This document shows, piece by piece, positions 1 to 31,700 of a stretch of DNA of 58,208 nt (position 1 is its first letter; each line of letters opens with the position of its first letter). The stretch is from a virus. Its lineage: Duplodnaviria; Caudoviricetes. The stretch lies in IMG/VR virus record IMGVR_UViG_3300032323_003414, positions 1-58,208 of that record; one strand, written 5' to 3'. Below the pieces are notes generated by a model, which searched no databases, was not told where the DNA came from, and saw nothing but the letters and a program-made list of their open reading frames with translations. The position numbers were made by a program, and so were the translations under genes.

Positions 1-146
1 CAGACATGGGGCAAATGGACTCGGCATTCCGTCGTGTTGCTCCATTAGAAGGAGAACTCGAACAGAAACACAAGTCATTCAATCAGTTTGTTGCTGGCGA
101 TATACAACATGCTTTGTTTAGAGATTGGCCAGATACTAATCTATAA
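1..146 (+). CDS. 3' end of a hypothetical protein (partial)
   Basis: Frame 3 is open from the window edge (DMGQMDSAFRRVAPLEGELEQKHKSFNQFVAGDIQHALFRDWPDTNL) to TAA at 144-146. Confidence 0.6.
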   Translation, partial: DMGQMDSAFRRVAPLEGELEQKHKSFNQFVAGDIQHALFRDWPDTNL

Positions 147-155
147 CACACTTTG

Positions 156-227
156 AGAACTTCTACGAAGTTCTATTCATTTCGCTTACGCTCATGAATG
201 TATTATTAAGAGATGAGCGAAGCGAAA
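156..227. repeat. Inverted repeat / hairpin cluster
   Basis: AGAACTTC-TAC-GAAGTTCT at 156-174 is a perfect 8-bp stem; TTTCGCTTACGCTCAT (180-195) pairs with ATGAGCGAAGCGAAA (213-227) with one bulge. Confidence 0.8.
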
Positions 228-605
228 CAGTTATCATCCAGATACCATGGTCACACTTTGCCCGCACAGGGCAAAGTAAAAACTGTCATCATCCGAGTAC
301 GAACAGTCACTTAGCGTTACAGCATTACAGAGGCGGTTGTCCGGTACCTCGAGCTGTGTCTTTATCACAACGGCGGCTTACATAAAATACGCTAACATCT
401 TACGTAAACGTGTAGCATCACTGCTACGTCTTTTTCCCTTTATATTCTATTCAAACAATCAAACCGCAGGTGTTTGCGATCGTGGTCCTGTCAAGGATAC
501 TGATTGAGTGCTCGTTACAGCGACGAGACTTCGGATTTCTGCGACACTGGGTCCAGGTTTCTACTGTTCGGCACACGATGTTGACCTGTGCGAGTCTTTA
601 CTGTG
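228..605 (-). ncRNA. Candidate structured non-coding RNA (family unassigned)
   Basis: No convincing ORF. Stems at 255-263/269-277, 282-286/303-307, 412-417/422-427 (GUGA GNRA loop on the minus strand), 465-468/475-478, 486-489/494-497 and 511-515/523-527. Lies directly downstream of the minus-strand operon. Strand is tentative. Confidence 0.45.
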
Positions 606-615
606 TAATAAGAAG

Positions 616-1641
616 TTATTGTGCTTCTATAAAATTTAAAATAGTATCTTTGTATGCCTGATGTTGTTTAGGTCCAGGATGTATGTCGTCAGATCCTAAA
701 TCTAAAAACTTTTGTGATAGTTGAGAGTTTTTGTAATGAAGTTGATGGGGAATATGTATGTAATTTTTTTGTGACTGTAAAAATCCCAGCAGACTGAAGT
801 TGTTAGGAAATACGCCAACTATGAATAATTTTGAACTAATTTTTTTGCAATAATTTAAAACTTGTTGTATAGAGTAAAAATGATTGTAAAATGTCTGTTG
901 AGAAAGCAACTGATCAATGTCGATAATACTGTTGTATTCAGGATGTTCTTGATAGGTGGATGTGTTAATGCCTTGCAATAGTTTATTGTCGTGGACGTAA
1001 GTCAACCTGTTCCAAGACGTCAAACCCCATATAACCAGGTCGCCAGCTTGTATATCCGATCTTAAAATTTGATCAGCGGCCCAGTTGATAGCAGATCCAG
1101 GGCGAGTTAAAAAACTACATTCTAAGTTCAAAGCGTCAGCCAATAAAGCACCATAACGTTGTCTAGAAGTTACGCCAATTCCGTGACTGATACTACATCC
1201 TGCAATCCACAGCTGAGGTTTTTCTGTTTTACGACAGTCAACCAATGGTATTGGGTCATGATCCAATGGACTAAAAGGATCAAAGTTTTTTATTTCAATT
1301 GATTTTGGTAACAACAATAATAAAATTTCTGTAAAGCCGTGTGTGCTTTGATCAGGGTTTATGATATCAAAATTTTTGTTATCTGACCATGTCTCGGGTC
1401 GACAATAAAAAATTGTATCAGCCTGACAAAGAATATTATAAACAGTTTCTAAATTTTTTGGTAAATCGCCTAGTGATGTGTATACTGTTGTACTGGATTT
1501 CAGCGGAGACATTATTTTTTTATAATTGTGTTGATCTAACAGCCAAGCAGACTGATCATACTCTTTAGCAATCTCTGCAAGGTAAACAGAGACATCGCCT
1601 AAAAATATTGTTAGTTTGTTTTGAACTGAATGATCTTTCAT
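616..1641 (-). CDS. SGNH/GDSL hydrolase-fold protein with an extra N-terminal domain
   Basis: Block I-like IAGCSISHGIG, PGSAI, and C-terminal DDIHPG (DxxH) motif. Confidence 0.7.
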   Translation of the reverse strand: MKDHSVQNKLTIFLGDVSVYLAEIAKEYDQSAWLLDQHNYKKIMSPLKSSTTVYTSLGDLPKNLETVYNILCQADTIFYCRPETWSDNKNFDIINPDQSTHGFTEILLLLLPKSIEIKNFDPFSPLDHDPIPLVDCRKTEKPQLWIAGCSISHGIGVTSRQRYGALLADALNLECSFLTRPGSAINWAADQILRSDIQAGDLVIWGLTSWNRLTYVHDNKLLQGINTSTYQEHPEYNSIIDIDQLLSQQTFYNHFYSIQQVLNYCKKISSKLFIVGVFPNNFSLLGFLQSQKNYIHIPHQLHYKNSQLSQKFLDLGSDDIHPGPKQHQAYKDTILNFIEAQ

Positions 1642-2066
1642 ATTTTATTTTTAATGTGACTACCGTGTACACGCACTTGTATGTGCCCGTTGTAGTAATC
1701 ATCGCTTTCTAACACACGTCTTGAGAATTGTTCGCGAGCTTCTATGTAACTACATTCAGCCTTGGACCTACAGTAATACAAAATTTCGCGAGTGAAGTTT
1801 TCTGTGCCTAACAGTTCAACATCTCGAGATAACTCCGGAGAACTGCCATAATATGTTTGCCAATCTGAGTCTATGGTGCCACGAATTTTTTTACGTTTTT
1901 TGTTGCCGTTTTTGAGTTTGACTACTTTGTATGTTGTTCGTTTAAATTTTGCTAGTTTTTTGCCAATGTACATTCTGCCAGTTAGTTTATTTGTGATCAA
2001 ATAAACAAACCCTGCACAATCTTCGGGTAACTCCGTAATTTCTTGCGATTCGAAAAGCCATGCCAT
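1638..2066 (-). CDS. GIY-YIG endonuclease (T4 endonuclease II-like)
   Basis: GFVYLITNKLTGRMYIGKK, YYGSS, E...YYN; 142 aa. Confidence 0.8.
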   Translation of the reverse strand: MAWLFESQEITELPEDCAGFVYLITNKLTGRMYIGKKLAKFKRTTYKVVKLKNGNKKRKKIRGTIDSDWQTYYGSSPELSRDVELLGTENFTREILYYCRSKAECSYIEAREQFSRRVLESDDYYNGHIQVRVHGSHIKNKI

Positions 2067-2083
2067 GAATTGTAGTTACCATT

Positions 2084-3097
2084 TTACCACTCTGTTGCGT
2101 ATTTTTCATCTACCCTACTTGTATTACACTTTGTTTGGCATTCCTGCCACCCAAAACTTTTAAATGTTGTTTCCCAAAAATTATCAGTTACAGCATCGCT
2201 CAAATTACGTTGATTCAAATCAAACTTGTTAGCAATGCCTTTCCAATCAGAGTTGTGACTATAGCGATTAGCAACCCAACAGCAAGGAAACAGTCGACCA
2301 CGGGCATCAATGTATAGACCTTTGTTGCCAATTTCACACAACGGTCGTACACCGTTAACTTCGTTGACTGATTTATAAAGTTGAATATTTTTTGCATGCA
2401 CTTTGTTGTTCAACCCACGAGTGCTTAATAGTATAACATCTCTTTCAAATCTATGCGAGTTACTTACAAGTTTTTTACTAGGCTCAAGTGGGTCGTTAAC
2501 TCCGTAACTGGGATAGACTGTGCCAAACTTTGTGCTTTTAGTAATTTGTATAGCATCAAATCCTTGTTCTTGTGCCATGGTTACCATGTCAATCAAATGG
2601 TCTTCGTTGAACTTGAATGCAATAGCGTCCCATACTGTGCGACATCTGCTGGTTGATCGCAAACTTGCAACACCTGCCAGTATGCTGTTAAAATCACTGT
2701 TAACACGGTACAAGTTGTTGGACTCGTTGTTCCAGCCATCTATACTAAAGTGTACAGTGTCAGTGTCCGCTAATGTACAACCTAACTCTTTCCACCACTC
2801 TGACTTTTTGTGACTGCCATTGGTAACAATCACAATCTCAACTGGTTTGACACTTTTAATATATTTGATCACTGGTATAAGATCGTGTGCGTAGATAGGG
2901 TCACCATCGTCGCCGCAGAATGTGATCTTTTCTACATTGTTGATGATAAACTCTTTGGTAAAATTTTTTTTAAAAAATTCTAAATCTAGTTCAGTGTTGA
3001 CCAAACTGTCCGGAACTTCTTGCCGAGCACAACGAGGGCATCGCAAAGTACACTTGCTTGAAATCTCTATATGAAAATGCCAGGTTGCTAGACTCAT
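2084..3097 (-). CDS. Radical SAM protein with C-terminal SPASM/twitch domain
   Basis: CTLRCPRC (CxxxCxxC), GDDGDP, TNG; C-terminal C...IDARGRLFPCC...CQTKC. Confidence 0.9.
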   Translation of the reverse strand: MSLATWHFHIEISSKCTLRCPRCARQEVPDSLVNTELDLEFFKKNFTKEFIINNVEKITFCGDDGDPIYAHDLIPVIKYIKSVKPVEIVIVTNGSHKKSEWWKELGCTLADTDTVHFSIDGWNNESNNLYRVNSDFNSILAGVASLRSTSRCRTVWDAIAFKFNEDHLIDMVTMAQEQGFDAIQITKSTKFGTVYPSYGVNDPLEPSKKLVSNSHRFERDVILLSTRGLNNKVHAKNIQLYKSVNEVNGVRPLCEIGNKGLYIDARGRLFPCCWVANRYSHNSDWKGIANKFDLNQRNLSDAVTDNFWETTFKSFGWQECQTKCNTSRVDEKYATEW

Positions 3098-4857
3098 GTA
3101 ATTTCTACATCTGTGTTATAACTTGTAAAGCCATTTTCTTTGACTACTTTTAAAATGTTCTCTACACGACCAGCCAGTTCATCGCGATGCGATACTAGCC
3201 AAATTGATTTGTGACGCTCTCGACTCATCTTCTTCAGCAAGGCCAAACTATTTTCTACGCCCTGTGTGTCCATACCCGAGTCAACTAATTCGTCAATAAA
3301 CAGCAAGTTGATAGGTGAGTACAAACTTTCCCAAACATCGCGGAATGCCCAACTCATACTTAAAATAAGTCGATTGCGTTCGCCACGACTCAAGTTATCA
3401 AAATCAAGATCTCGGCCAAGTTCTGTGATTTCAACGTTGAGATCGTTTTGAAATATGACCTGATGCGGCAGTCCAATACGATCCAGGTAGTGAGTGAGTC
3501 GAGCATTCAAGTAACTTAAATTTTGTTCAATGATCTTCTTACGTATAAACGAATCTTTGTTGGTCAAAAGTTTAAGTAAAAAATCTTGGTGTTCCTGCAG
3601 TCTTGTGAGCTCGTTGAGAGTATCATAGGTTACTACTTGCAAAGCCTGACCGGTCATTTCTTCAATTTGTTCGCCGTATGGATCAGTTTCAGCAGATTTT
3701 TCGGCAATTTGTTTTTCTAAATTGGTCAATGTTGCCTGGTGATGTACAGCATCGGCTTCGTTGTCATAGAACATCTTAGGTGGTTTACCTAACGTGCCCA
3801 GGGAGTCGTGGGCAGCCTGTAGTTCTGATAAGAGGTTGCTGTGTTCCTGGCTTGCCGCTCTTGCACCTGCCAAATCTTTCTGTTTCGCTTCCATAACTTG
3901 TTGGTGCTTATTGTCGTGGAACGGTTGACCACATGTGTGACAGGTGTGAGACTCAAGTGTTGCAATCTCTTTGCTAAGTTTTTCAACGCTTTTGTTTTCT
4001 CGATCCACATCAAGTTTCGTGCGGGAGATCTGGCCAGATAAGTCGTTGATATCCTTGCGTTTCTGATCCCAAATTTTGTACGCCTTGTGCGCTTCAATCT
4101 CCGCTTCAATGTCGATCTTCTTAAGCTCTTCCAGCGCCGTTTGCAACTTTTCAATCTCTTCATCATGTTTTATTATCCACATTGTTTGTCGCCGACGTAG
4201 ATTTTCGATTTGTTCCTCAATGCGTTTGTTGGCTTCCTGTACTGCACGAATACGCATTTCTTCTTGTGTAATGCCGTCTTTGGTTTCTCTGTTGAGTTCT
4301 TTGATGCGTTCAGCACGTTCGCTGAGCAAGGTAATTCCAAGAAGTTGTTCAATGATAGCTCTTTGATCATTGGCCTTAAGACTCAAAAACGGTTCAGTGT
4401 ATGTGTTTAATGCCAGCACATGTTTGAACATGTCATGCGTCATACCCAAGGCTGCCTCTATAGCATCTTGTGTTTCACGACTGTCACCCTGGCTGTTGTC
4501 ATCTGCGGCTTGTTCTTCGTTGTTGACATAAAACTTTAACACATTGGGTTTACGACCGCGTTCAATCTTGTAGTCTCGGCCGTTAATATTAAAGTCCAGG
4601 CTGACCAACATGTTTTTGCCATTGGTTTTGTTGATTAGATTGTCTCTGCGAATGTTGGTAAGAGCTTGGCCATACAACGCATAACTCAAGGCATTGATAA
4701 TTGTAGTCTTGCCTGTGCCGTTGCGACTACCGTCTCCTCCAAGATCCAAATTTTCACCCAACACCAGTGTGAGGTCTCTGCGGTCAAAGTTAATGGCCTG
4801 TGTGGCATTGCCCACACTCATAAAGTTTTTAACGGTGAGATCTTTTATTTGGATCAT
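3094..4857 (-). CDS. gp46: Recombination nuclease ATPase subunit (SbcC/Rad50-like, T4 gp46)
   Basis: Walker A NGTGKTT, coiled coil with zinc hook CHTC, signature LSRGE, Walker B LLFIDE, SH switch. Confidence 0.95.
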   Translation of the reverse strand: MIQIKDLTVKNFMSVGNATQAINFDRRDLTLVLGENLDLGGDGSRNGTGKTTIINALSYALYGQALTNIRRDNLINKTNGKNMLVSLDFNINGRDYKIERGRKPNVLKFYVNNEEQAADDNSQGDSRETQDAIEAALGMTHDMFKHVLALNTYTEPFLSLKANDQRAIIEQLLGITLLSERAERIKELNRETKDGITQEEMRIRAVQEANKRIEEQIENLRRRQTMWIIKHDEEIEKLQTALEELKKIDIEAEIEAHKAYKIWDQKRKDINDLSGQISRTKLDVDRENKSVEKLSKEIATLESHTCHTCGQPFHDNKHQQVMEAKQKDLAGARAASQEHSNLLSELQAAHDSLGTLGKPPKMFYDNEADAVHHQATLTNLEKQIAEKSAETDPYGEQIEEMTGQALQVVTYDTLNELTRLQEHQDFLLKLLTNKDSFIRKKIIEQNLSYLNARLTHYLDRIGLPHQVIFQNDLNVEITELGRDLDFDNLSRGERNRLILSMSWAFRDVWESLYSPINLLFIDELVDSGMDTQGVENSLALLKKMSRERHKSIWLVSHRDELAGRVENILKVVKENGFTSYNTDVEIT

Positions 4858-6374
4858 ATGTTATTATAAACAATCTTTCGGTAGTTGTCTAGCTCGGGCA
4901 GATAATCTTTGAGTTCAATATCTCTAGATTGGTCGAGCTTGTTGTTGATGTTGTAAAACTGAGCCAAAGAAGCAAAGTCAATTACATGTTGATTCTCAAA
5001 GTGGTTGATATAACCATTGATGCTACTGGCCAGCAACGGGTCGTTGGCATAGCACATCAGCGTTTGTGCTCGGTGCAATGATTCTAACGCTTGATCTTTG
5101 AATGGATAAACAAACGGAGACATCCACTGTGGACCTTCGGCCAACTGACAATGTACCAAGGTGTTAGGAAATTCACTGTCAATAAATGCCAGTAACTTGT
5201 CCAAACTTGAAATGTTATAAATTGAAACAGTAACATTAACAGTGACTCGATGGTGCTGTTCTCTCAAGTATCTAATGTTTTCAACAATGGTATTCCAATC
5301 AGCAGGCCATCGTATGTAATAGTTAAGATCTTGAAATCCATCTATACTAAAAACAAACTGAAAATTAGAAAAGTTTTTTAGTTGATTTTTAAAACGAGCA
5401 CTGAGTTTGGTGCCATTAGTATTAACCAGCATCTCAAAATCTGTGTTAGCATTGTTGATGCAGTCATCAAGAAACTGGTAGAATGCAGGCATTACCATGG
5501 GCTCGCCACCGGCTACATAGAGTTTTTTAAGATTATCGAACTTAATAATTTCAAAGCCAGATGTGTGTCTTTTTGGCAGCAGGTCAACTACTCCAATATT
5601 GAGTTTTTTATACTCTCGGGCAATAAGGTGACTGTTAAGGGGATTACAAGTTCTGCACTGTAGATTACACTTGTTGTCTGGACGTACTTCATAATATGCT
5701 GGTGCAACAATCTCATCAAGATCTTCAAGACTGTTAATATTCAAAATATTAGCCCACTCCACAGTTTCTTGTTGTCTAGCACTGAGGATACCTTTGTTTT
5801 CAAGACGATAACAAGAATCACAATGCTCGGGCAACAGTTCTCCAGCAATCATCTTTTGTCTAATAGCAACATAGTTTGGGTCAGTTTTAAAATCTTTAAG
5901 CTCTGACAGTTTCACAATTGGAGTATCCGACCTACAACATACTGTGGTAGAATCAAAATTTGTCAACATCTCAATAAAGGGGAATATACAAAAACTTTTG
6001 TTTTTCTTGACAAGGTCTTCAAAAAACTCAATGTTGTCTTTGTATGTTACATTTAGAAATTTTATTTTAGTTTTAAGACTGTTAAGTAGTCGAACTGTGA
6101 GATAAAAAGAATTAGGATGCTCCCATTGAGTTTTAGGTTGATCCAGCATGATTACCAGATCAAACTCTTCGCAAAGATTTTTCAGTTTCCCAAAAGCCAC
6201 ATCGTACACACTAGAATGATAGTACCCATTTTCTAGATACTGTGCTGAGGTAATTGGACGGTCGAGCTCACTTAGCAGTCCGTGGCATGGCATGTCAGCA
6301 TCGGCGGAGAGCTTTCGTGTTTTAGTATCTGTATCTACAGTATTGTTACCAAGGCATAATACTTTTTTTATCAT
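4854..6374 (-). CDS. Radical SAM protein with twitch domain N-terminal to the core, plus an extra N-terminal domain
   Basis: FCIFPF...VCC...CDSC followed by CNLQCRTC, AGGEP, NTNG, SIDG. Confidence 0.9.
   Translation of the reverse strand: MIKKVLCLGNNTVDTDTKTRKLSADADMPCHGLLSELDRPITSAQYLENGYYHSSVYDVAFGKLKNLCEEFDLVIMLDQPKTQWEHPNSFYLTVRLLNSLKTKIKFLNVTYKDNIEFFEDLVKKNKSFCIFPFIEMLTNFDSTTVCCRSDTPIVKLSELKDFKTDPNYVAIRQKMIAGELLPEHCDSCYRLENKGILSARQQETVEWANILNINSLEDLDEIVAPAYYEVRPDNKCNLQCRTCNPLNSHLIAREYKKLNIGVVDLLPKRHTSGFEIIKFDNLKKLYVAGGEPMVMPAFYQFLDDCINNANTDFEMLVNTNGTKLSARFKNQLKNFSNFQFVFSIDGFQDLNYYIRWPADWNTIVENIRYLREQHHRVTVNVTVSIYNISSLDKLLAFIDSEFPNTLVHCQLAEGPQWMSPFVYPFKDQALESLHRAQTLMCYANDPLLASSINGYINHFENQHVIDFASLAQFYNINNKLDQSRDIELKDYLPELDNYRKIVYNNI
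4863..4891 (-). promoter_or_regulatory. Sigma70-type promoter for gp46 (probably leaderless)
   Basis: Minus strand TAGACA-17 nt-TATAAT ending 5 nt before the gp46 ATG. Confidence 0.6.
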
Positions 6375-7387
6375 AGCGCCTGATATATTTGTAATAGCAA
6401 TTTAGGATCGTAAAATTCTGATTCAATCTTGGTGATCTGATCTGTGACAATCTGATCCACAGACTCAAATCGAATTTCGCCTGGGGCTAAGTCCTCTTCC
6501 AGGGCTGACCGCTTGTTGGGCATCAATGCCATTTCTCTAAGATTGTGTTTGGTTATAAACGTATCCTTGATAAACCCAGCCTCTTCGTAGCTAATTTCAA
6601 TGTCTAACTGCACACGCACATGCATGTTGGGTCGAAGCAGTTGATCTCCGCGATCGATAAGAGTTGAAAGATCAAACACATTGTACAATGGTTGATCGGC
6701 CCAGGCATGATACCTGGGTTCTTGACCCCATTCTAATATCATGCACCCGCGCTGGTCGTCTCCGGCATCGGCAAAGTTATGAGGAAATGCATTACCAATG
6801 TAGTTGATGTTGTTTTTGTGTTGTCGTAAGTGGAAGTGCCCAGAGAACACTTTGTCATAGTGCCCAAAGTGTGCGGCTTGTATTTCTCCATGGTCGGGCA
6901 TTTCTACCATAGCATTCATTTTGAAATGTGGAAGTTCAAAGTGTCCAAACATATACTTGCTGGACATTTTTTGTATGCGCTTATGATCATCGCCCACCAG
7001 CCAAGGAGCAATTATGACATCACCTTCGTGGAACCAATCGTTGCACACATGTATGTTGGGCAAGTGTCGAGCCCAGGCAGCACCGTGAATGTCACGCTTG
7101 TCTCTGTAGTAGAGATCATGATTGCCAGGAATAAAAAAGAATTGACTGAATGCTGCCGACAGCTTTTCCAGCGCCTGCAAGCTAAAGTTCAAAGTCTGTA
7201 GATTGATTGAAGCACGGTGATGGTGCCAGTCGCCCAAAAACATTCCAGTCTCACAGCCCTGCTCTCGAGCAGTTGCAATGATCCAATCTACAAACTTTTC
7301 GCAATCCTGATTGTGTATGAGGCTATTCGATTTCAGTCCAAAATGGATGTCAGTGAAAACGATAGCCTTCTTGAATAAGTTGGCCAT
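6371..7387 (-). CDS. gp47: Recombination nuclease subunit (SbcD/Mre11-like, T4 gp47)
   Basis: Metallophosphoesterase motifs DIHFG, GDWHH, GNHD, GHFH; near gp46 and gp55. Confidence 0.95.
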   Translation of the reverse strand: MANLFKKAIVFTDIHFGLKSNSLIHNQDCEKFVDWIIATAREQGCETGMFLGDWHHHRASINLQTLNFSLQALEKLSAAFSQFFFIPGNHDLYYRDKRDIHGAAWARHLPNIHVCNDWFHEGDVIIAPWLVGDDHKRIQKMSSKYMFGHFELPHFKMNAMVEMPDHGEIQAAHFGHYDKVFSGHFHLRQHKNNINYIGNAFPHNFADAGDDQRGCMILEWGQEPRYHAWADQPLYNVFDLSTLIDRGDQLLRPNMHVRVQLDIEISYEEAGFIKDTFITKHNLREMALMPNKRSALEEDLAPGEIRFESVDQIVTDQITKIESEFYDPKLLLQIYQAL

Positions 7388-7395
7388 AGAGTAGC

Positions 7396-7424
7396 AGTAT
7401 ACTATTCTTCGGGACTGTTTGCAA
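7396..7424 (-). promoter_or_regulatory. Sigma70-type promoter for gp47
   Basis: Minus strand TTGCAA-17 nt-TATACT, 8 nt before the ATG; no Shine-Dalgarno. Confidence 0.55.
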
Positions 7425-8295
7425 CCGCTTCGGCTGCTTTGTTATGACTTTCGGAAAATTGTCGTGTCCAGCTAGGATTGAGTCCGTTTAATTCTAAGAT
7501 ATCATCACGAATATTTTGCATCTTCTTTTCAATGTTTAACACACGAGTAAAGCTGTTAGTGATAGCGGCAGTATAATACGCAAAAGGGTTCTGCGATTTT
7601 GATTCATCGAACTGCAAGCCAATTTGGCTGAGTTGTAGCAAGGCTTGTCCCCGCATTTCTTCGTTGTATGTGTATCCACGCCAGTTACTCCTTGTAGCAT
7701 ATCTTTCGCACAATTTGATAAACATGTGAGCCAATTTATTGGTCATTTTGCCATGATCTCTGCAGAACTCGCCCCCATCTAAGGTACCCTTCCAGTGCGA
7801 TTTGCCCACCAAAAACGGCTGTTTTTCTTCGTCCAAACGATAGTGATAGAAGGGAGGAAAGTTCAATCTCACATAGTTCATGTCCAGCACAGGTACTTCT
7901 ACCAATTCCTCTAAACCGTCAGATTCGATAGAATCATCAAGCTCTAACAGCTCTTCCATCTTGCTTTTTTTGGCTTGTGCTTTGGTTTGTTTTTTAGGAG
8001 CCATGGGTATATGCTCCCAGCAAGTGATGCGAAACACAAGATCTGTGTGCGGAATTTTTTTGTCGTTAACAACCTCGCCGGTTTCGCGTTTGATACGGTC
8101 AGCACGATTTCTACGTGCTTCGGCAACAGTGCGTTGATTGATTTTTTCCAGCGATGGCAAAATAATATCATACTGGTGATCCAGCACAGGATCGCGATAT
8201 GAACAGTAGGTGTTTTTGCTGAAATGTATTTCTTTTAAGATATCTCTATTGTTGAGATAATTGACTTTTTTAGGTGTTGCGGGCGTAGTAGCCAT
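7402..8295 (-). CDS. gp55: Late-transcription sigma factor (T4 gp55-like)
   Basis: NYLNN N-terminus and NWRGYTYNEEM...FDESKSQNPFAYYT...F...LNIEKK; synteny with gp47/gp46. Confidence 0.88.
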   Translation of the reverse strand: MATTPATPKKVNYLNNRDILKEIHFSKNTYCSYRDPVLDHQYDIILPSLEKINQRTVAEARRNRADRIKRETGEVVNDKKIPHTDLVFRITCWEHIPMAPKKQTKAQAKKSKMEELLELDDSIESDGLEELVEVPVLDMNYVRLNFPPFYHYRLDEEKQPFLVGKSHWKGTLDGGEFCRDHGKMTNKLAHMFIKLCERYATRSNWRGYTYNEEMRGQALLQLSQIGLQFDESKSQNPFAYYTAAITNSFTRVLNIEKKMQNIRDDILELNGLNPSWTRQFSESHNKAAEAVANSPEE

Positions 8296-19726: not shown

Positions 19727-22700
19727 ATGGCACAAACAAGAATTCGTACAGTAGATTTTCTACCAGAGATTTTCCGCACACCAACCAACAGACAATTCTT
19801 GTCTGCTACGTTGGATCAATTGGTGCAGGATCCTAAACTCAAACCCACACAAGGTTTTATTGGTCGACGTGTTGGCCCTGGAGTCAATCCCAAAGAAAGC
19901 TATGTACTTGAGCCTACTAAAACTCGTACAGATTATCAGCTTGAGCCAGGCGTAGTTTTCCTTAAACCCAACACCAACACAGTTGAAACAGCAGTGACCT
20001 ATCCTGGTCTGGTTGATTCAATCAAAGTCAAAGGCGGTACAACAACAAGACAAGATCGCTTATGGGAAAGTGAATATTACAGCTGGGATCCTTTTGTTGA
20101 TCTTGACAAATTTATAAATTTTAGTCAATACTATTGGTTACCAGCCGGTCCTGATTCGGTTGACGTGTTTGCTGACCCTGTGCCACTCACTGATGATTTC
20201 ACAGTGACTCGCAACAGCAACAATTATACATTCAGCGGAGTTCCTGGCACAAACCCAACCATCACGTTGGTGCGTCAAGGTAGCTACGACTTCAATGTAC
20301 AACAGAATGGGCATCGATTCTGGATACAAGCAGTACCCGGTACCTCAGGAGTACTGCCACAGACCCCAAATCAAAGCAGTCGAGAAGTGTTGGGTGTAAC
20401 CAACAACGGTGAAGACAACGGTACCATTACTTTTAATGTTCCTGCCAAAAGCGCACAGAATTTTTACTATCAACTTGAGGATGCCGGCACAGTAGACTTT
20501 GCTACCAGTATCCAATTTGATGATATCAACAATATCTATGTCAGCGAATTCATTGAAAGATATGGTGGCATCGACGGAGTCAAAGATCTTAATGGTCGTA
20601 CTGTAATTTTCTTGTCCAATGCTGGATGGTTTTTTACAGGACTGTATGACAGTGCCGGCCAACCTTATGACTCTGTGCCCTTTGACGAAACAGTGGAAAT
20701 TTCTCTGGATAGCCAACGCTACAGCGTGTGGAGAATCAACTATGTGTTTGACGATTCACTCAATCCCTACATACGACTCACAGTAGATCGTCCAGTTAAC
20801 AATCTCAGCCGACTGTTGACTCTCTATGGCAATCAATATGCCAACATTAGTTTTTACAAAAATTCCAGTGGATTGTTTGAACAAATTCCTTTGATCACAG
20901 CCAACCTCGACATATTGTACTATCAAGATGCAGACAATCCAGAGTTGTTTGGAATTATCAAACTAGTAGATCAGTCCGGCGATCAAGATATAGACATTGA
21001 TGAAATTGTTGGACAAAAGAACTATACAAGTCCCAACGGAGTAACTTTCTCTAACGGCCTAAAGATTCAGTTCCAAGGCCCAACCACTCCGCCTAGCTAT
21101 GAACAAAAAGAATACTATGTAGAAGGAGTAGGCACAGCCATTGAACTAGTGCCAGTGACCAGTTTGATCACTCCAGAAACATATACTCGTTCTAGCACTG
21201 TTCCTTATGATTCAACACCCTATGATGCAACTCCATTTGATGACACATTAAATGCTCCTGTTGATCAAGACTACATAACAATCAATCGTGCCAGCAAAGA
21301 TCTAAATGCTTGGACTCGTAGTAATCGTTGGTTCCACGTGGACATTATCAATGCCACTGCACAATACAACAACACTGTGCCTTTTCTTGATAATAATGCT
21401 CGTGCTAAACGACCAGTGTTAGAGTTTGTGCCAGGACTTAAACTTTTTGATTTTGGTACTCAAGGAATTGAGCCAATCAACATTATCGATTTCCGTGAAA
21501 CTGATGCCATGAGCAATATCAATGGCAGCATTGGATATAGTGTTGACGGATATGCATTTGCCACAGGCTCACGTGTGATATTTGCCGCGGACCGAGACCC
21601 TGAAGTTAGAAACAAAATTTATCAAGTAACGTTTATTGAACCATCTGGTGGCGGAACACCTATCATTGATTTGCAACCAGCCAACCTCAACAAGCCAGAT
21701 GAGCCATTTGATGTGGTGGCAGTGTGTTTAAGCGGTGTTACGTTACAGGGACAGAGCTTTTGGTTTAACAATGAAACATGGATCCCAGCACAACAAAAAA
21801 GTGGAGTAAATCAGCCTCCGTTGTTTGATGTCTACGATGCGGCTGGATACAGTTTCAGCGACGGTTTGATTTATCCTAGCACTTCATTCCGTGGAACAAA
21901 ATTGTTTAGCTATGCTCCAGGCGAAGGTGTCACAGACAAAATCATTGGCCAACCACTCAAGTATCTCACAATCAACAATGTGGGAGACATTGTATTTGAC
22001 ACCAATTTGTATATGGACACGTTTGTGTATGTAGAAGATACTATCAGTGTTGAAAAACCAATTGGTGAAGGTTTTGTTCGACAATATGCTGACCGTACAA
22101 ATTTTAGAAAATTGATTGGTTGGGAAACAGCTGAATCCACAGTGATGTCTCGTCAGAGTTTTTCTTTTACATACAACAACGAGCCATTGATCATTGACAT
22201 TCCAGTGAGTCAAGACAGCGCAACTGTGCCAGTCAAAGTGTATGTAAATGCTGTGTTCCTTACCACAGACAATTACACCTATGAAATAACATCAAACAGC
22301 ACAATTATTACTTTTATAAATCCACCACCAGTTGACGCCAGCATTGAAGTCACAGTGGTCAGTGATGTGGCCAGCCCCACAGGTTTCTACACTGTGCCAT
22401 TGAATCTTGAAAACAATCCTCTCAATGATCAGGTTACTACACTGACCTTGGGAACCATAAGAAATTATTACAACGGGATCTGTCAAAACATATCAGCATT
22501 CACTGGTGAAATCAACGGTATCAACAACACACGAGATCTTGGAAACCTAATTCCTTACGGTGATCAAATCATACAAAACAGTGCGCCAGTGTTGATGACT
22601 GCTGTGTTTACCAACAACACAGAATATGACTTTTTCCAGTCTTTGGAGTTTACATCGTATCAATATCAAAAGTTTAAAAACGTATTAGTTGACACAGTGA

Positions 22701-25700
22701 TCAAAAATGATTTCCAAAATATGACTGTGGCTGAAATATTGGATGCTTGTGTCACACAAATCAATTTTGGAAAAACAGAACTGTCTCCATTTTACTGGAG
22801 CGACATGTTGCCTTCAGGGGAAACATATCAAGAAACAGTGTATACAGTTACTCCTATTACCACAGACACATTTGATACACTGTACTCCTACGATCTTGAC
22901 TCAGCCAACTACCAAGCTATTTTGATTTATCTAAACAATGAATTGCTGATCAACGGAGTGGAATATGAAGTTGCTGTAGATGGACCGCGAGTGACAATAT
23001 TGGTTCCTCTAGCTGTGGGTGATGTAGTTTCTATTAGAGAATACGAAAACACTTTTGGAAACTATGTTCCAACTACTCCAACCAAGATGGGCATGTATCC
23101 ATCATTTATTCCAGAAAAATTTGTAGATACAACTTATATTACTCCTACAGAAGTAATAAGAGGGCATGATGGTAGCATAACTGTGGCCTATCAAGATATT
23201 AGAGATGATATTCTGTTGGAATTTGAAAAACGCATCTATGACAATCTCAAAGTAGACCAACTAGATATTCCGTTGACCTATGCAGATGTTGCCCCTGGTC
23301 AGTTCCGCACCACAGATTACACACAACAAGAAATTACCACAATCATGGGCACCAGTTTCTTGGCCTGGGTTGGTGCTAACAACTTACCCTACAAAGATCA
23401 AGAATACAATGCTGCCAACCAATTTACGTGGAACTATAGTGCAAGTTTAAACAAACTCAACAATGAAACATTGTTAGGAGCCTGGAGAGGAATATACAAC
23501 TATTTCTACGACACAGATGCTCCAAATACTCGCCCTTGGGAAATGTTAGGATTTAGCAAACGTCCTACATGGTGGGAACAAGAATATGGTCCTGCCCCAT
23601 ATACCTCAGGCAACTTGGTACTATGGGAAGATTTAGAAGCTGGCCGAGTAATGGATCCAGCGGCACCATATATCATACCAAAATATCGTCGCCCAGGTTT
23701 GACCGCAGTTATTCCTAGTGACAGCGAAGGTAACTTGTTGCCTCCGTACGCAGTCATGGTTGGAGAATATGATCCGGGCAGTTTCCGTAAGAGTTGGACA
23801 GTAGGTGATGACGGGCCAGTTGAAAACGCCTGGCGCACTTCCAGTGCATGGCCTTTTGCTGTGCAAAGATTATTGGCACTGACCAAACCAGCCAAGTACT
23901 TCTCATATTACATTGATAGAGATGCTTATAGATTCAACGAGGAACTTGGACAATGGGTTTATTTTGATAGAACTCGTACATTGGACGCTGGTACAATTCA
24001 AGTATACGGCACTGGAATTTCTAAAAACAGTTACTTGAACTGGGTAGTTGATTACAACAAAGTCATTGGTAAAGAAACTACTACAGCACTCAGCAATATT
24101 TTAGACAATCTGGATGTGCGTCTTTGCTATCGTATGGCAGCATTCTCTGACAAGCAGTATATCAAACTGTTTACAGAAAAATCAAGCCCTAATAGCTTGA
24201 ACACCAGTTTGTTGTTACCCGATGAAAGCTATCAGTTATTGCTGTATAAAAATCCAACCATAGCATCGTTGACCTGGAGTTCGGTGATTATACAAAAATC
24301 TGATTTGGGTTATACTGTGTACGGGTACAGCACCACTAAACCGTATTTTGAAATACGTGCCAGCATACCAAACGGCAATTATAGAACTATCACAGTAGCG
24401 GACACTGTGGTGCGAGTGCCCGACGACTACAGTGATACAGTAGTTCAGGTCCCCTACGGATATGAATTTGTTGGCGTAAATTCAGTGGTTGACTTTTTGT
24501 TGAGCTATGGAGCATTTATGGATGCCCAGGGTATGACCTTTGAGGATCAAGAGCGCGGTCGTATTCTTAACTGGAGCCAAATGGCTCAAGAATTTGTGTA
24601 TTGGAGCAAGCAGGGATGGGCAGTGGGCAGTTTAATCAACATCAACCCTGTGGCCAATGTATTGCAGATTGTCAAACCAGGTTTGATTGCTGAACCTCTC
24701 AGCACCACAGCACCAGAAGACATTTTGCTTAACCAAAACAAACAACCTCTTCAAGGGTTAGATTATGTAGTCGACAGATACGAAAATGCTTTCCAACTCA
24801 CAGCAGTAAACAACAACACATTCAGTTACCTCAATGCCAAATTCACTGCCTACGAGAACTTGATTGTGCTTGATAACACCAGTATATTCAATGATCTAAT
24901 CTATAATCCTACCACCGGTGCTCGCCAAAGCAGATTACTGTTCACAGGATATACCACCTATGAATGGAACGGTAGCTTGGATGCACAAGGATTTATTTTA
25001 AATCAAGATAACATTCAAGATTGGATACCAAACAAGAGCTATACCAAAGGACAAATAGTCAAGTACAAAGATGCTTATTGGTCAGCAGTAAAAATTATTC
25101 CTCCTCAGGAAAAATTTGATTTCCAGTTTTGGCTCAAGAGCGACTACGCTGAAATACAAAAAGGACTATTGCCCAACGCTGCCACTAAAGCACAATTTAT
25201 ACGTGGGTTCTACGACACCAACCAGGTCAACCAAGAGAGAGACGCAGATCTACTGGCATTTGGATTGATTGGATTCCGTCCACGTCGTTACATGCAGAAT
25301 TTAAATCTTGACGACATCAGTCAAGTTAACCTATATCAACAATTTTTGGGAATCAAAGGTACCACACAGGCCACAGACATATTCACCAAGGCCAATCTTG
25401 GCAAAGAAGTGGCCGAGTACGAGATTTTTGAAAACTGGGCAATCCAGCGAGCAATATACGGAGCCAATGCTAATCGTAGCTACTATGAACTACGCCTAAA
25501 TCAGGCCTTGTTGCAAGGTAATCCTTCTACCATTCAAGTGATTGAGCCACAGCAATACAGCATTGCTGATCAGACAGTGCAAGTAAATCACTTATGGAAG
25601 GAAAGTTATCCAATTACATCTCCAGATATTTTGCCAACCAGTTTCTTAAATGCCACTGATGTGCAACTGCCAACCGCAGGCTATGTAAATTGGGATGATG

Positions 25701-28700
25701 CTGACATTAAACTGTTTGATTTTGCTGAACTCACTGCACTGATCAACGACATTGAAAATATTCAGGTAGGGACCAGTGTATGGGTAGCCAAAGACAACAG
25801 CTACGATTGGAACATCTACAGAAATAATCTTGTGCTGTACAACATTGTACAAGTGAGAGACAATCTCAACGGCACATGTACGCTAAGATTTGCCAACCAA
25901 CACGGACTAACCAAAGATCAACATATTGTTGTGAAATATTTTGGTCAGGGGGTTGATGGTACATATCAAGTTTTATCAGTACCGTCACTTGATACTATCA
26001 CAGTGGCACTGACACTAGGCGGTGCTGTTACACAACTCACAGGTATTGGTGTTTGCTTTGTGCTTGAAAGCATGCGTGTTAGACAGGCAGCCGATGTTTC
26101 AAATCTTGTGTATGCCAATAGCTTATTGCCTGGCAATCGTGCCTGGGTCGATGATGATGGCACAGGACACTGGGTAGTTTACGAAAAAATAAATCCGTTT
26201 ACTCCAGCGTTGGCATTGTCTCCATTGGAGCCAGTGATCAATTCTAGATACGGCAGTGCTATTACTCAAGGATTTGGTGGCTTTGGTGCATTGGTCGGTG
26301 CTCCTGGGTTAAACAACGAAGTTGGTGGCGTATATGGATTCACCAAGGGTGGATCTTTAGACTATGTAGAAACATTATTGTTGCAACCTGGTGCCAACAA
26401 CTTTGAAAATTTTGGTAGCGCAGTTACATCAGGCGGAAATCAATGGGGTGCAGTTGGAGCCGCTAACAGTTGGGCCAAACAAGGTTATGCAGTAACAGTC
26501 AATAGAAATATTAACTCTGGTGATTATTTGCAGAGTCAACTGTTGACAGAAATACCTTATCGTATAGATCAAATTACCAGCACTGGTGCGTCTACATATT
26601 CAGTGACTGGAGTTACATTGACTGATACATCTAAGGTTAGTGTTGTGGTAAATGATGTAGTTTTACCTCAAGGCACTGCTTGGATTATTTCTGGGTCTAA
26701 TATAGTGTTCCAGTCAGGATACATACCGACCGCTGGCAAAACAATCAATGTGTTCAACTATGATGAATATTCCTACAGCATAAATGTCAGCAACGATGAA
26801 CGTTGGTTGTACATTGGTGCTCCAGCAGGCAACAGAGTATATGCTTATAATCGCGTGGATGTTCAGTCCCAGGTTAAAAACTTTGTTGGCGACGGAACAA
26901 GGACAGATTTTTTTGTAGCAGATGTAATTATAGTTGATGACGACTCTTCATCAGGCGGCATTGGCAGCACACAGATTGGTGTCACTGTAAACAACATTCC
27001 TAAAACAGCAGGTGTTGATTTTGACTATGTTAATGGCACTGTGATATTTGACACAGCACCTAACACCGACGACAAAGTACGTGTGATACGTTTGTTGAGT
27101 AAAACATATTTCCCAGCTGAGATTACAGCCGGCAACTTTATACCTGGAAAACAATATCAAATAGCAACCTCGGGCTCTACCAACTTCACATTGATCGGAG
27201 CTTCATCAAACGCTGTTGGAACAGTGTTTACAGCCACTGGTGCAGGCACAGGCACTGGCACGGCTGCAATAATGAATTTTGATATAGACATGATATACCC
27301 TGTGACAGATATCTATAGTTTCAGCGTGTATGTCAACAGTGTGTTACAGCGTCCAAACATGGACTACTCATTTAACAGCACAACAAAAACAATTACTTTT
27401 GTTAACACCGCACCATTGGGCACTGTGTTAATAAATTGTGCAACACATTTCAAATATGTTGATTATATTGATTCTGCCGTAGTTGGGACATTGACTGCTG
27501 GTGCTAGATTTGGACACAGTTTAACATCAACCACAGATGGGCGTCAGTTTACTGCTGGAGCGCCAAATGCCACAGCTGACAACAAATTACTGGCTGGTCA
27601 GGTGTTTCAAGTTGATCGAAGCGTAGAAAGATTCACAGTGACCAATACTGCTCAAACTCAGTATTCAACTTTGAGAAATTTCAATGGCCCAGCCACTGTC
27701 AAAGTTAACGCCACTTTCTTAATTCCTGATGCCTACAACAACAATGGTCAATTCACTGAAGTGGATGCCAACACTGTAAACATCACAGCATCATTGAATA
27801 TTGGCGACATCATTGAAATAGAAACAAACACATTCAAGTTGATGCAGGCTGTTTCGTCAAATGCACCTCAAGCAGGTGCAGTGTTTGGTACAGCAATTGA
27901 TCAGTGCCCAAATAATTGTAGTTTATACATTGGTCAGCCCAACGACTCTGCTGTGGTTCCTGAAGCAGGCAGTGTGGAAAGATTTGTCAATCAGAGCAGA
28001 TTGTATGGTATCATAACAGGTACCAGCCAGTCTCCTACGTTAACCCCCGGTGACACTATTCGAATTAACCAGGTAGATGTTGCTGTTCCGACGCCATCTA
28101 CTTGGTCTAGTGGCGTTACTTGGTCTGCCGGATCATATGTGATTTATAGTTCTGCCATTTACAAAGCATTGAGAGCAGTACCTGTGTCAGTGAGCATTTC
28201 AGACACCACATACTGGATTCAATCTAGTTGGCTTGAGTTGTATGCAAGCACTATCAATGCGGCAGCAGAGCCAAACAACATTGGACTAATTGAAGTTCCT
28301 AATGCTCAAGCTACTGTTAGCAATGGTTACTTAACAATTTCTGTATTGAATTCCAATGCGGCTACACCATTTACACAGTTGACTGTTCTTCCTGGGCTCG
28401 GTGACGCATTCTACGACATTGGGTTTGACACACAGTACTATACACAAACCATTCAAGCACCTGGGCAACTGGCCTATGCGCACTTTGGTGCATCCGTGGA
28501 TGTCAGTGATGATGCGTTGACATTGATTGTTGGATCTCCACAAGGTACAGCATTTACACCAACTACATTTGACAATGGCACCACTTACTTTGATAGCAGA
28601 TCAACAGAATACTTTGATCCTCTCAACGAAAGCGGAGTGGCATATACCTATGATTTCTTGGCAGCAGCCAACGAGTCGATTTATAATCCAGGTAAGTTTG

Positions 28701-31700
28701 TATTTGGCCAACAAATATATGATGATACTCTAGCATCTTTAGATGAGTTTGGCACAGCAGTGAGCTATTCCAATGGTATCATGCTTGTTGGTGCACCGCA
28801 AGATGACCTCAATGATAGTTCTGGAGACTACGGACGAGTTGCCAAACTCAACAACGCAGACAGATCGCCAGCGTGGAAACCTGTGTATATACAGACTCCA
28901 ATTGTTGATGTCAATTTGATCAACTCTGTGTTCATGTATGACAGGTTAGAATCAAAAGTTACTCAGTATCTTGATTTCATTGACCCATTGCAGGGCAAGA
29001 TACTTGGTGCGGCAAAACAAAACATTGATTATTTGGGAGCAGTTGATCCTGCAGCCTACAACACTGGTGACATCAACAACTATGGCGACACTTGGGTAGA
29101 AAATCATCTTGGAGAAATCTGGTGGGATCTTTCGACTGTGAGATTTATTGACTACCATCAAGGTGACATTGACTATGCTAGTCGTCGCTGGGGACAACTA
29201 TTCCCAGGTTCCACTGTGGATGTGTATCAATGGATTGAAAGTCCAACTCCTCCTGCCACATACCAAGGACCGGGCACAGTTTACAGCACTACCAGTTACA
29301 CAGTGTCTAGCAAGTTAGATGCTCTGGGCATGTTTACTGCTCGCTACTACTTCTGGGTCAAAGGAATTCCAGAAGTAGCATCCAGACTGAAAAAAACTTT
29401 GAGTGTACAGGCCATTGCACAGTACATTGAAAATCCACGTAGTTCAGGAATTTCGTACGTGGCTTTCATAAATCCAAGTACCACTGCAATTTACAACGCT
29501 AGAAATTATATCAGCGCACAGGACACTATATTACACATTGAGTTTGATAAAATAGCTAACAATGACAATGTTCACGTTGAATATGATTTAATTTCTGCCG
29601 GTAACCCTGACAGCTTCTTAGAAGCCAATTTGTATCGCAAGATGCTTGACTCTTTCTGCGGAGAAGACACACTGGGAAATAAAGTTCCTGACACAACCTT
29701 AAGTCCAGCAGATTTATATGGTGTGCAGTTCAGACCACGTCAGAGTTTCTTTGTTGATCGCTTTTTGGCTTTGCAAAACTATTTAGAACGAGCCAATGCT
29801 ATCATGGCACAGTACCCACTCAGCGACAGCAGATCATTTGCATTGCTCAATAGTTCTGAACCTGAACCTACATCTGCGTCAGGAGAGTGGAACAAACGTG
29901 TGCTTACCTATCAAGAGCTTACTTTCCAAGACCTCAGCGAAGTTCCTGTGGGATACAAGTATCTTGTGGCGTCAGATTCTACCAATAACGGACTGTGGAC
30001 CATCTACTCAGTGACCCTAGGCAATGCGTTGCTAGGTGCTCCCAAAGAGCTGTTGCTTACTCGTGTGCAAAATTACGATACCAAGCTGTACTGGGAATAC
30101 ATTGACTGGATACAGCCAGGATACAACGCTGGAATTAAACCAGTGGCTGAAGTAGCAACCTACAACGAACTGCTGAGATTGACCATACCCAATGGATCCA
30201 GCGCCAAAGTCACACGTAACAGTTTTGGTAAATTTGAAATTTATCAATACCTTGATGGTCAGTGGATTCGAGTAGTGCTTGAAGACGGCACTGTTCGCAT
30301 CAAAGAAACTATCTGGGACTATGCCGCTGGCAAGTTTGGATTTGACGTAGAAACATTTGACAGTCAATACTTTGATCAATTCCCAGGGGCAGAAACACGA
30401 CAAATCATCAAGGCTATCAACGAGCAACTGTTGATCGACGAGTTGGCAATATTCCGTAACTCCTTGTTGTTGTTGGTATTTGAATTTATTCTTACCGAAC
30501 AGATTGCACCAGATTGGTTGTTTAAGACCAGTTTGATTGATGTCAACCACAAGATTCGTGATTTGTTGCCGTACCAAATTTTCCGACAGGATAACCAAGA
30601 CTTTGTGCTGGATTACATCCGAGAAGTCAAACCGTATCATGTCAAGATCAAAGAATTTAACCTTCGCTATGAAGGTATTGACACCTATGATGGAAATGTC
30701 ACAGACTTTGATTGCCCAGCATATTATGATACTGATTTACAAGAATTCCTAGCACCAGCACTGGATGATACAGTTCCGCCAAAATACAGCAATAGTGTGC
30801 CATCTAGCAGTCCTATCTGGTATCAAACACCATGGAATCAATGGTATCAAAATTACACTTTGCAGTTGCAAGGTGCAGATGTCATTGAACCAGGTATAGG
30901 CTACACTGTTCCGCCAGAAATCACAGTGGGAGTAGAATGGCAACCGTCAACTGCTGTGACCAATGGTGAACAACTATTCTATCAAAATTATTTGTACACT
31001 GTTTTGGATTCGGGAACCACAGGCACAGTTGCTCCTACGTTTACCAGCGGTACAGCTACCAATGGTACTGCAACATTGGGATTTGCTGGAACTCGTGCCA
31101 AGGCCGTGGCTCGTGTTAACACAGCTGGCCAACTGGTTGAGGTCATAGTTGTTGTTCCTGGTTCAGGATATATTGTCACTCCAACCATGACAGTGAGTGG
31201 TGGTAACGGCACAGGCGCCCGTGCGGTGCCAGTACTAGGCAATGAATTAGCTCGACACATACTAACAGTTATCAAGTATGATCGTTACAATTATGTCAGC
31301 CAAGTTGTTGATTGGCAGACAAATACCAACTACACACAAGGTCAGTTGATTCGTTTCCAAAACAATGTTTACAGTGCTAACCAAGCACTCAACAGCGGAA
31401 CAATATTTGATCCTACAGAGTACACCATAGTTGACGAGTCTACTTTAGACGCCGCGGATCGAGTGATTGGATTGTATACTCCAACACCAAACGAACCAGG
31501 TCGTGAATTAGCACAAGTAATCACCGGAATTGACTACCCAGGTGTGCAAGTCATGGGACCCAACTTCAACCAAAACACTGGGTATGATGTTGGAAACTTT
31601 GACATTAACCCTTACGATAACATTGACTTTGGCCCAGAAGGCCGTCCAACATACTCAGAATCAATATTGGATGCTGTTTATGAAAGCGCCTTTACTGACA

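Follow-up and report, generated by a model that had tools for sequence, protein, structure and literature searches.

A predicted extended form of the Polynucleobacter-1 RNA, with twin sequence boxes, at the end of a phage gp55-gp47-gp46 operon

The locus and the family of the RNA

The stretch of DNA analyzed here (the window) measures 58,208 bases and is a fragment from the record of an uncultured virus (IMGVR_UViG_3300032323_003414), ~17% complete according to CheckV. Its left end is occupied by a minus-strand operon comprising the genes for gp55, gp47, a radical-SAM protein, gp46, a second radical-SAM protein, a GIY-YIG protein and an open reading frame (ORF) of 341 aa. From the letters alone, the stretch that follows had been singled out as the candidate site of a large, structured, non-coding RNA closing the gp55-gp47-gp46 operon, a proposal that the confirmed operon, the homologues and the covariation described below all support. 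Taken as a whole, the best explanation, to which we give a probability of roughly 0.8, is that the minus strand from ~606 to ~150 is one gene for a non-coding RNA of ~450 nt, the phage copy of an extended Polynucleobacter-1 RNA (RF01718). The feature originally placed at 228-605 is real, but its 3' end had been set too short, since conservation and structure span ~606 to ~150.

The RNA lies on the same strand as the gp55-gp47-gp46-GIY-YIG operon and begins ~10 nt past the upstream stop codon. Between the end of a plus-strand ORF (146) and the end of a minus-strand ORF (616), only ORFs of at most 63 aa are found, and no frame is conserved into the repeat boxes among 44 homologues (median 7 and 11 open codons), in line with the lack of a credible ORF noted in the original prediction. 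The higher GC content claimed for the region relative to the adjacent gene was also confirmed, with values of 0.43-0.51 in 100-nt windows over 201-600 and of 0.24-0.37 over 601-950. Beyond the originally proposed 3' border, nearly all copies of the RNA add an optional box, a hairpin with a conserved loop and a terminator-like hairpin. The predicted parts of the RNA are the following:

150..606, minus strand: whole RNA gene, ~450 nt, read from 606 to ~150; conservation against a related 94-kb record, with conserved 5' lead and 3' module
453..596, minus strand: 5' domain, RF01718 model positions 1-141; helices P1-P4b 74-98% paired, with double changes
412..427, minus strand: hairpin P5 with a GNRA-type loop (GUGA); 4/4 pairs changed on both sides
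376..409, minus strand: long hairpin P6; double changes in 11/12 pairs
390-393 with 313-316, minus strand: pseudoknot PK1, in which the P6 apical loop AGCG pairs with CGCU in a strand 100 nt downstream; 97.7% paired, 4/4 double changes
319..371, minus strand: knotted core (P7, P8, P9), in which P7 crosses both P8 and P9
282..307, minus strand: hairpin P12, with box 1 in its loop; flanks pair within each sequence
288..298, minus strand: box 1, ACUC (295-298) plus GGAUGAU (288-294), in the P12 loop; heptamer identical to that of box 2
256..276, minus strand: hairpin P11 (CUUUGCCC/GGGCAAAG), 97.2% paired, followed by conserved UGUGAC (250-255)
233..243, minus strand: box 2, AUCU (240-243) plus GGAUGAU (233-239), single-stranded after P11; no surrounding hairpin (z -0.5)
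205..214, minus strand: optional CGCUUCGCUC box, complementary to the terminal hairpin loop above the shuffled level
175..199, minus strand: terminal hairpin, a covarying 6-bp stem (AUUCAU/AUGAAU) with the conserved loop GAGCGUAAGCGAA (181-193)
156..174, minus strand: terminator-like hairpin ending the RNA; a strong hairpin follows the terminal module in homologues, and this one is listed for the plus strand

A search of the whole window with cmscan against Rfam 15, using the curated gathering scores, returned RF01718 as the sole gathering-level match in the 58,208 bases. The match, on the minus strand at 453-596, scores 81.7 bits (gathering score 37, E 8e-16) and spans model positions 1-141 of 141 without truncation. 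RNase P, group I and II introns, GOLLD, ROOL, riboswitches and other Rfam families gave no match at gathering score anywhere in the window, ARAGORN found no tRNA or tmRNA gene in it, and no Rfam family exceeded the threshold in the remaining ~300 nt on the 3' side. Thus, the RNA is not wholly undescribed: its 5' 144 nt place it by sequence in RF01718, and the idea of an undescribed phage RNA put forward in the original prediction fails for this part and stands for the other ~300 nt.

The Polynucleobacter-1 motif was published by Weinberg et al. (2010, Genome Biol 11:R31, PMC2864571), whose Table 1 gives it as a probable RNA, tentatively cis-regulatory (cis-reg 'y', switch '?'), with Burkholderiales as taxa and fresh water/estuary as habitat. 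A full-text search for the name 'Polynucleobacter-1' retrieved this paper alone, and a literature search on the extended RNA found nothing; the supplements of PMC2864571, which lay outside the search, may hold an alignment and gene contexts. The RNA of the window resembles the published motif in that the whole 141-position model is matched by 596-453 and the same helices covary in relatives. It differs in extent, since the Rfam model corresponds to the first third only and the RNA runs 300-420 nt further, and the 3' continuation with pseudoknots, twin boxes and a terminal module is found in the window, in related phage loci and in chromosomal copies. It also differs in position: the motif marked as probably cis-regulatory in that table does not occupy the place of a 5' leader in the window, where it lies at the 3' end of an operon, faces a converging gene and has terminal hairpins of its own. 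Neither Rfam nor, its supplements aside, the one paper that names the family contains the 3' two-thirds, the phage context or the twin boxes.

Predicted fold and covariation

The fold was evaluated on an alignment of 44 distinct full-length copies (365-408 nt). RNAalifold predicted 57 pairs, 37 of them compensatory, and mutual information added long-range Watson-Crick covariation beyond this drawing, namely PK1, P7 and a pseudoknot between GAC and GUC in the 5' domain. A structure written by hand, with 92 pairs in 18 helices including the pseudoknots, was compared with 500 shuffles and with partners slid by 1-3 columns. It leaves 90.7% of the cells paired, against 76.4 +/- 0.4% in the shuffles (0/500 reach the observed value) and 36.5-42.7% with slid partners. 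Pairs with changes on both sides amount to 64/92, against 45.2 and 24-40, respectively, and the covariation score is 0.409, against 0.164 when shuffled and 0.057-0.105 when slid. The structure was in part read from the very 44 sequences on which it is scored; this biases the comparison with slid partners in its favour and counts to that extent against our interpretation. Folding energy of 147-615 on the minus strand was also better than in shuffled controls (-138.6 kcal/mol, z -2.75, 1/100 shuffles as good); this is modest when taken alone, and the weight of the case comes from covariation. The strand of the RNA is fixed as minus by invariant or near-invariant G-U pairs (142/178 and 309/321 in 44/44 copies, 256/264 in 38), which would be A-C mismatches on the other strand. 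As judged from the alignment, the RNA is conserved, strand-specific and multiply pseudoknotted, with at least two further predicted pseudoknots past the 5' domain.

Compensatory changes keep the consensus helices of RF01718 in the 5' domain, where helices 2-9 are 74-98% paired among the 44 copies; for example, pair 97/108 occurs as GC (17), AU (8), CG (7) and UA (7), and pair 120/181 as CG (21) and UA (19). The pseudoknot of this domain joins GAC 594-596 to GUC 583-585, inside the P1 loop, on the basis of columns 21/32 (GC 27, AU 16). The stem-loops originally described, including a minus-strand GUGA loop, are real: the latter caps P5 (412-427, CA-GUGA-UG), and relatives have GCGA, GAAA or GUAA in its place. 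Within the knotted core, P7 (GUUGU 367-371 with ACAAC 336-340) is 100% paired, with compensatory changes in 3/5 pairs (UA 32/CG 12; GC 36/AU 8), P8 (ACAGC 353-357 with GCUGU 319-323) shows them in 5/5 pairs, and P9 (330-350), which contains the invariant GGUACCGGACAACCGCC, is 97.3% paired. Further downstream, columns 423/439 of P11 are UA in 25 copies, AU in 14 and GC in 2, and the flanks of P12 form a mean longest helix of 5.50, against 4.57 +/- 0.14 in a cross-sequence control (z 6.9). An additional helix, 'P10', which would join box 1 to the prefix of box 2, was considered and discarded. It is 96.6% paired in phages, but only two of its pairs show a double change, a single one each; one locus (L065) breaks two pairs yet keeps the boxes identical, and the rejection follows from the inability of this pairing to form in the chromosomal copies.

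At the 3' end, the loop motif GAGCGNNAGCGAA of the terminal hairpin is conserved in 33/44 copies, 25 of which have a stem of at least 5 bp whose sequence differs between phages. Complementarity between the CGCUUCGCUC box and this loop averages 6.0 nt, against 4.43 +/- 0.18 when shuffled, and reaches at least 6 nt in 17/33 sequences, with 6.15 expected. The terminator-like hairpin probably terminates the converging plus-strand gene as well. Upstream of the RNA, no sigma-70-like site was found on the minus strand, and TATAAATA, which we take to be the T4 late promoter consensus, was present exactly in 0/44 regions and with one mismatch in 2/44. Transcription would reach the RNA by reading through the operon and would stop at the RNA's own hairpin, and processing may follow.

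Relatives in phages and in Polynucleobacter chromosomes

A DNA pattern derived from the Rfam alignment led to four virus contigs, all scoring 92-101 bits for RF01718. At these loci, the RNA comes directly after, and on the same strand as, a 141-aa GIY-YIG homologue that follows gp46, and it is succeeded by ~400 ORF-free bases and converging genes; their alignment showed conservation extending ~230 nt past the 3' end of the Rfam model. A sample independent of the RNA was obtained by fetching 80 loci by the GIY-YIG protein alone, the best 80 of at least 578 relatives. Hidden Markov models (HMMs) built from the first five sequences found both parts of the RNA in 46 of these loci, only the 5' part in 2, only the 3' part in 12 and neither in 20, and with HMMs built from the 44 copies the number with both rose to 54; of the rest, 21 showed the 3' part alone, 2 (both truncated loci) the 5' part alone and 3, of which 2 are truncated, none. 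The RNA is thus carried by 77/80 loci, and every match lies on the strand of the GIY-YIG gene. Twelve out of 12 further loci passed RF01718 with 69.5-121 bits, the match lying at the corresponding position in each. The distance from the GIY-YIG stop codon to the start of the RNA is 5-60 nt in most relatives; the conserved 5' lead of the RNA, CAGUWAAGRC, begins within ~25 nt of the upstream stop codon. When the window is compared with the related 94-kb record (G002), the best-conserved stretch is 148-603, with 83.5% over 461 nt against 65-78% for the genes.

A blastn search with 147-615 found no match in 50,697 isolated-phage records. The GIY-YIG protein family is present in 494 isolated-phage records, all at <60% identity, the best being that of Methylophilales phage Melnitz (50.7%), and in the three annotated isolate records inspected, out of four fetched, its gene stands in other contexts, without a large gap after it. 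The Rfam model detected RF01718 in 0/5 genomes, which were four whole isolate genomes with a GIY-YIG homologue and one complete relative of 346,856 bp with terminal repeats (G001). Nevertheless, the 3'-domain HMM matches G001 behind the GIY-YIG gene (L035 3114-3268, E 6.4e-14), indicating that a subgroup whose 5' domain has diverged or been replaced escapes the Rfam model; 21/80 loci are of this kind.

RF01718 was also found above the cut-off in 17 of the 151 Polynucleobacter genomes searched, with many matches inside megabase contigs, and on a contig of a Polynucleobacter metagenome-assembled genome (MAG). The HMM of the phage 3' part gave no match to the chromosomal copies. Alignment of 12 of these copies showed that they too extend in the 3' direction, by ~420 conserved nt organized like the phage RNA: a core with ACCGCC, a hairpin followed by UGUAGG, a terminal GAGCGNNAGCGAA hairpin, a terminator and twin boxes. 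An HMM of this chromosomal extension, in turn, gives weak matches (E 4e-5 to 9e-3) to 13 phage loci, in their 3' parts. Among the 120 pattern matches listed for species-representative genomes, at least six are true further copies, most of the others being chance matches in GC-rich genomes; these six lie on short MAG contigs and have the phage form.

The chromosomal copies reside in integrated islands. A recurring module, seen at L232 (G034:C1:2009000-2028999), L233 (G121:C1:398000-417999) and L227, combines the RNA and small ORFs with an AAA ATPase, a tyrosine recombinase of only 188-198 aa and a divergent DUF6641 gene. The short integrase, located one to three genes away from the RNA, matches only the Pfam Phage_integrase catalytic-domain model PF00589, and no tRNA adjoins the chromosomal copies. 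In the G034 island, a long integrase and an HpaII restriction-methylase pair adjoin the module.

The neighbours of the RNA in the window are the following:

7402-8295, minus strand: late sigma factor gp55, operon gene
6371-7387, minus strand: SbcD-like gp47, operon gene
4854-6374, minus strand: first radical-SAM gene of the operon
3094-4857, minus strand: SbcC-like gp46, operon gene
2084-3097, minus strand: second radical-SAM gene of the operon
1638-2066, minus strand: GIY-YIG protein of 142 aa, catalytic domain only (PF19835, residues 3-129 of 142; phrog_447)
616-1641, minus strand: 341-aa ORF, separate from the RNA, between it and the GIY-YIG gene; no Pfam or PHROG family
3-146, plus strand: C-terminus of a DUF6614 protein (last 47 aa match PF20319, E 1.6e-7); the ORF ends at 146 and converges on the RNA

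An extra gene of 0.8-1 kb separates the GIY-YIG gene from the RNA in the window and at four other loci. The radical-SAM genes (2084-3097 and 4854-6374, minus strand) interleave with gp47 and gp46, and two related loci (L002, L005) lack them there. Elsewhere, the window contains one ORF of 4871 aa (19727-34342, plus strand).

The twin boxes and their interpretation

The imperfect internal repeat reported in the original prediction was also detected mechanically (225-239 versus 280-294, 87%) and is kept in relatives. The heptamers of the two boxes are identical in 41/44 copies, which hold eight different heptamers among them, and the other three copies share a shifted GGUCAA or AGUCAA; per-column box identity is 43, 44, 42 and 42 of 44. 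When a tree of the 44 copies is built from the columns outside the boxes, each box shows at least 19 heptamer changes, which makes them about as frequent as changes in ordinary covarying base pairs. Further loci gave identical boxes in 58/62 and 17/21 cases, adding the heptamers GCAUAAU and ACAUGAA. In the chromosomal copies the boxes read AACUC+N7 and AAUCU+N7, where N7 is AGCGAAA, AUCAAAA, AGAGAAA or AACAAAA and is the same in both, apart from two copies whose boxes differ, G versus A, at the first position. The same rule with unrelated heptamers in these copies indicates that it holds across very different heptamers and hosts. The boxes covary by identity, not by complementarity.

In five of the chromosomal loci (L222, L223, L225, L228 and L229), the heptamer AGCGAAA also ends the terminal-loop motif (GAGCGNNAGCGAA + A), giving three copies in the RNA. 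The boxes of L224 are AUCAAAA with an unchanged loop; hence, the terminal loop does not covary with the boxes.

Searches for a sequence that would pair with the boxes were negative. Mutual information revealed no column inside the RNA complementary to the variable box positions, no complementary heptamer recurred consistently within +/-2.5 kb at the 44 loci, and no covarying third site was found in the ~23 kb alignable between the window and G002, two phages with differing heptamers. In five Polynucleobacter genomes searched with one pattern, the only complementary sites were the gene's own antisense sites and control-level matches. A U-rich strand (columns 181-187) was tried as a partner and rejected, as it pairs equally well with foreign heptamers (36 versus 35 of 44) and is not conserved in the chromosomal copies.

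The frequent changes of the boxes, together with the failure to find a third partner, argue for a direct two-body requirement, which we consider somewhat more probable than its absence: like would go with like, and box 1 would have to equal box 2. This rule could take two forms. In one, the boxes would pair in parallel within the fold, base with identical base. In the other, a strand complementary to one box would have to re-pair with the other box; this strand could be nascent and crossing hairpin P11, or it could be the template DNA of an R-loop. A specific version of the first form, in which the heptamers would pair in parallel (A-A, G-G, U-U and C-C, trans Watson-Crick) and zip the P12 loop to the strand after P11, is a tentative and rather doubtful proposal, although it would be the only RNA-only reading considered that gives identity with two mutations per change and no third sequence.

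The twin boxes might instead form a bivalent address for one separate partner pairing with the two alike, be it a DNA site or an RNA of the phage or the host. Their placement in a hairpin loop and in a single strand, their purine-rich composition and the nature of their differences, which fall at an end position and are mostly A versus G, tolerable to U in an RNA partner, would suit such a three-body system, and G-U pairs would allow a partner with GGGU at its end to match the prefixes ACUC and AUCU alike. The negative searches inside the RNA, within +/-2.5 kb of the 44 loci, over ~23 kb and in the five Polynucleobacter genomes speak against it, and a three-body system would demand three matching mutations for every one of the at least 19 concerted changes on 44 tips; we regard it as unlikely, while still giving it real consideration. 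A lower probability, low enough to be called slight, is given to an RNA-primed or R-loop start of DNA replication, in which annealing of the loop heptamer to template DNA at the other copy would keep the transcript attached to the DNA, a possibility that overlaps with the second form of the two-body rule. ColE1 RNA II and T4 oriF/oriG are folded transcripts whose fate is decided by downstream contact with template DNA, and such a contact would account for the box-equals-box rule here too, without a third sequence; the variable A/U-rich spacer after box 2 and the DNA-transaction genes that neighbour the RNA in phages and islands also fit. Unlike in those systems, however, no promoter was found before the RNA, a 7-bp RNA:DNA contact is short, and an elaborate conserved fold with a terminal terminator is more like a released RNA. 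A guide or specificity subunit for a neighbouring enzyme without a DNA-binding domain (the 142-aa GIY-YIG protein or the 188-198-aa tyrosine recombinase) is very improbable. Its appeal lies in the 77/80 loci with the GIY-YIG gene that carry the RNA just downstream on the same strand, in a GIY-YIG protein reduced to its catalytic domain (PF19835, residues 3-129 of 142) and in the chromosomal copies lying one to three genes from a short integrase that matches PF00589 only. However, the protein family recurs in 494 isolated-phage records, with other contexts in the three annotated records inspected, RF01718 is absent from the four whole isolate genomes searched, the RNA occurs without the nuclease in Polynucleobacter, another gene intervenes between nuclease and RNA in the window and four other loci, and no target complementary to the boxes was found in the flanks of 44 loci, one genome pair and five Polynucleobacter genomes. 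The obligate co-occurrence expected of an RNA-guided nuclease or recombinase is contradicted, since enzyme without RNA and RNA without enzyme both occur.

Marginally less probable again is a cis-regulatory leader or riboswitch, as tentatively marked in Table 1 of PMC2864571 (cis-reg 'y', switch '?') and as might be expected from one Polynucleobacter genome (L227) in which the short integrase gene follows the RNA on the same strand. The next downstream gene converges in the window and at the four pattern-found phage loci, a conserved hairpin and terminator module ends the RNA, and at two other Polynucleobacter loci the downstream genes differ in kind and strand. A converging gene and a terminator of its own point to a released RNA, not to a leader. 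The smallest probability of all goes to conservation at the DNA level (recombination sites, iterons or slippage-promoting direct repeats round a hairpin) or to the coding of a small protein. Direct repeats flanking a palindrome are a classic slippage substrate, in the core sites of tyrosine recombinases a 6-8-bp overlap, which has to be the same in the two partner sites, lies between inverted binding arms, and integrases do lie near the chromosomal copies. Nevertheless, the strand-specific G-U pairs and the 64/92 compensatory pairs fit a folded single strand, no copy without the 55-nt inter-box segment was seen among the loci examined, and recombinase core sites were discarded because, despite the identical 7-mer, inverted flanks occur only at box 1 (13-15-nt spacer) and no inverted arms surround box 2. 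Coding is contradicted by the lack of conserved ORFs. Translational bypassing of the kind known from T4 gene 60, where matching take-off and landing sites, identical short sequences ~50 nt apart, have a hairpin at or between them, offers a likeness in two identical short sequences with a hairpin, and the boxes of the 41 main-family copies do consist of a sense codon plus UGA/UAA. It was also rejected: no conserved frame enters the boxes, and stop codons are not universal, since the L002-L004 subfamily and the chromosomal boxes have none, so that only the identity rule is alike. Altogether, the element would be a free-standing folded RNA, neither the leader of a downstream gene nor the guide of a neighbouring nuclease.

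Several points weigh against the interpretation of the locus as an extended Polynucleobacter-1 RNA governed by a two-body rule. Folding of the minus strand of 147-615 (z -2.75) is hardly better than that of the plus strand (z -2.53), the U-run of the terminator is weak on the minus strand, and the expression, ends and processing of the RNA are all inferred. P12 is only 48.9% paired in fixed columns, a poor count attributable to bad alignment of its stem. For the boxes, sign tests on independent pairs are underpowered (5, 3 and 4 starred pairs; p 0.06-0.25), all pointing in the same direction, and we know of no precedent in natural RNA for parallel like-with-like pairing over 7 nt. The partner search covered +/-2.5 kb at 44 loci, ~23 kb of one genome pair and one pattern in five genomes, and a partner encoded far away or in the host, although unlikely, keeps a chance that should not be neglected.

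Comparison with other RNA families helps to place this one. GOLLD and ROOL occur in phages and prophages, and twin identical boxes are, to our knowledge, not a feature of GOLLD, ROOL or OLE. These three are likewise large, highly structured RNAs without known function, for which homo-oligomer formation has been reported (Kretsch et al., 2025, PMC12286853); unlike them, the RNA of the window is smaller (~450 nt), and it matches none of them in Rfam at gathering score. A weak alignment links the 3' core (308-409, minus strand, 22.9 bits) to cow-rumen-2 (RF02947), with GCCGCC ... ACNGGANNACC ... GUAA in common, and recurs at the equivalent place in 1/12 relatives (L056 3115-3218, 22.8 bits). However, the score is far below the gathering score of 66 and the consensus helices of cow-rumen-2 differ from those supported here, so the similarity may reflect a distant relative or chance.

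If the interpretation proposed here holds, an orphan motif of 2010, described as a probable leader of ~140 nt, is the first domain of an RNA of 450-560 nt with several pseudoknots. This RNA, which is conserved more strongly than the proteins of the phage itself, would be common to a large clade of uncultured T4-like phages and to mobile islands in Polynucleobacter chromosomes, and would join the few large, ribozyme-sized RNAs of bacteria and phages without known function. Polynucleobacter strains with chromosomal copies are culturable, and the question is therefore open to experiment. The identity rule points either to an unusual tertiary pairing or to a complementary strand moving between the boxes, and either would be a new principle, if true. 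In the case of parallel pairing, it would mean like-with-like covariation and a seven-pair parallel homo-duplex in a natural RNA, of a kind invisible to standard covariation tools.

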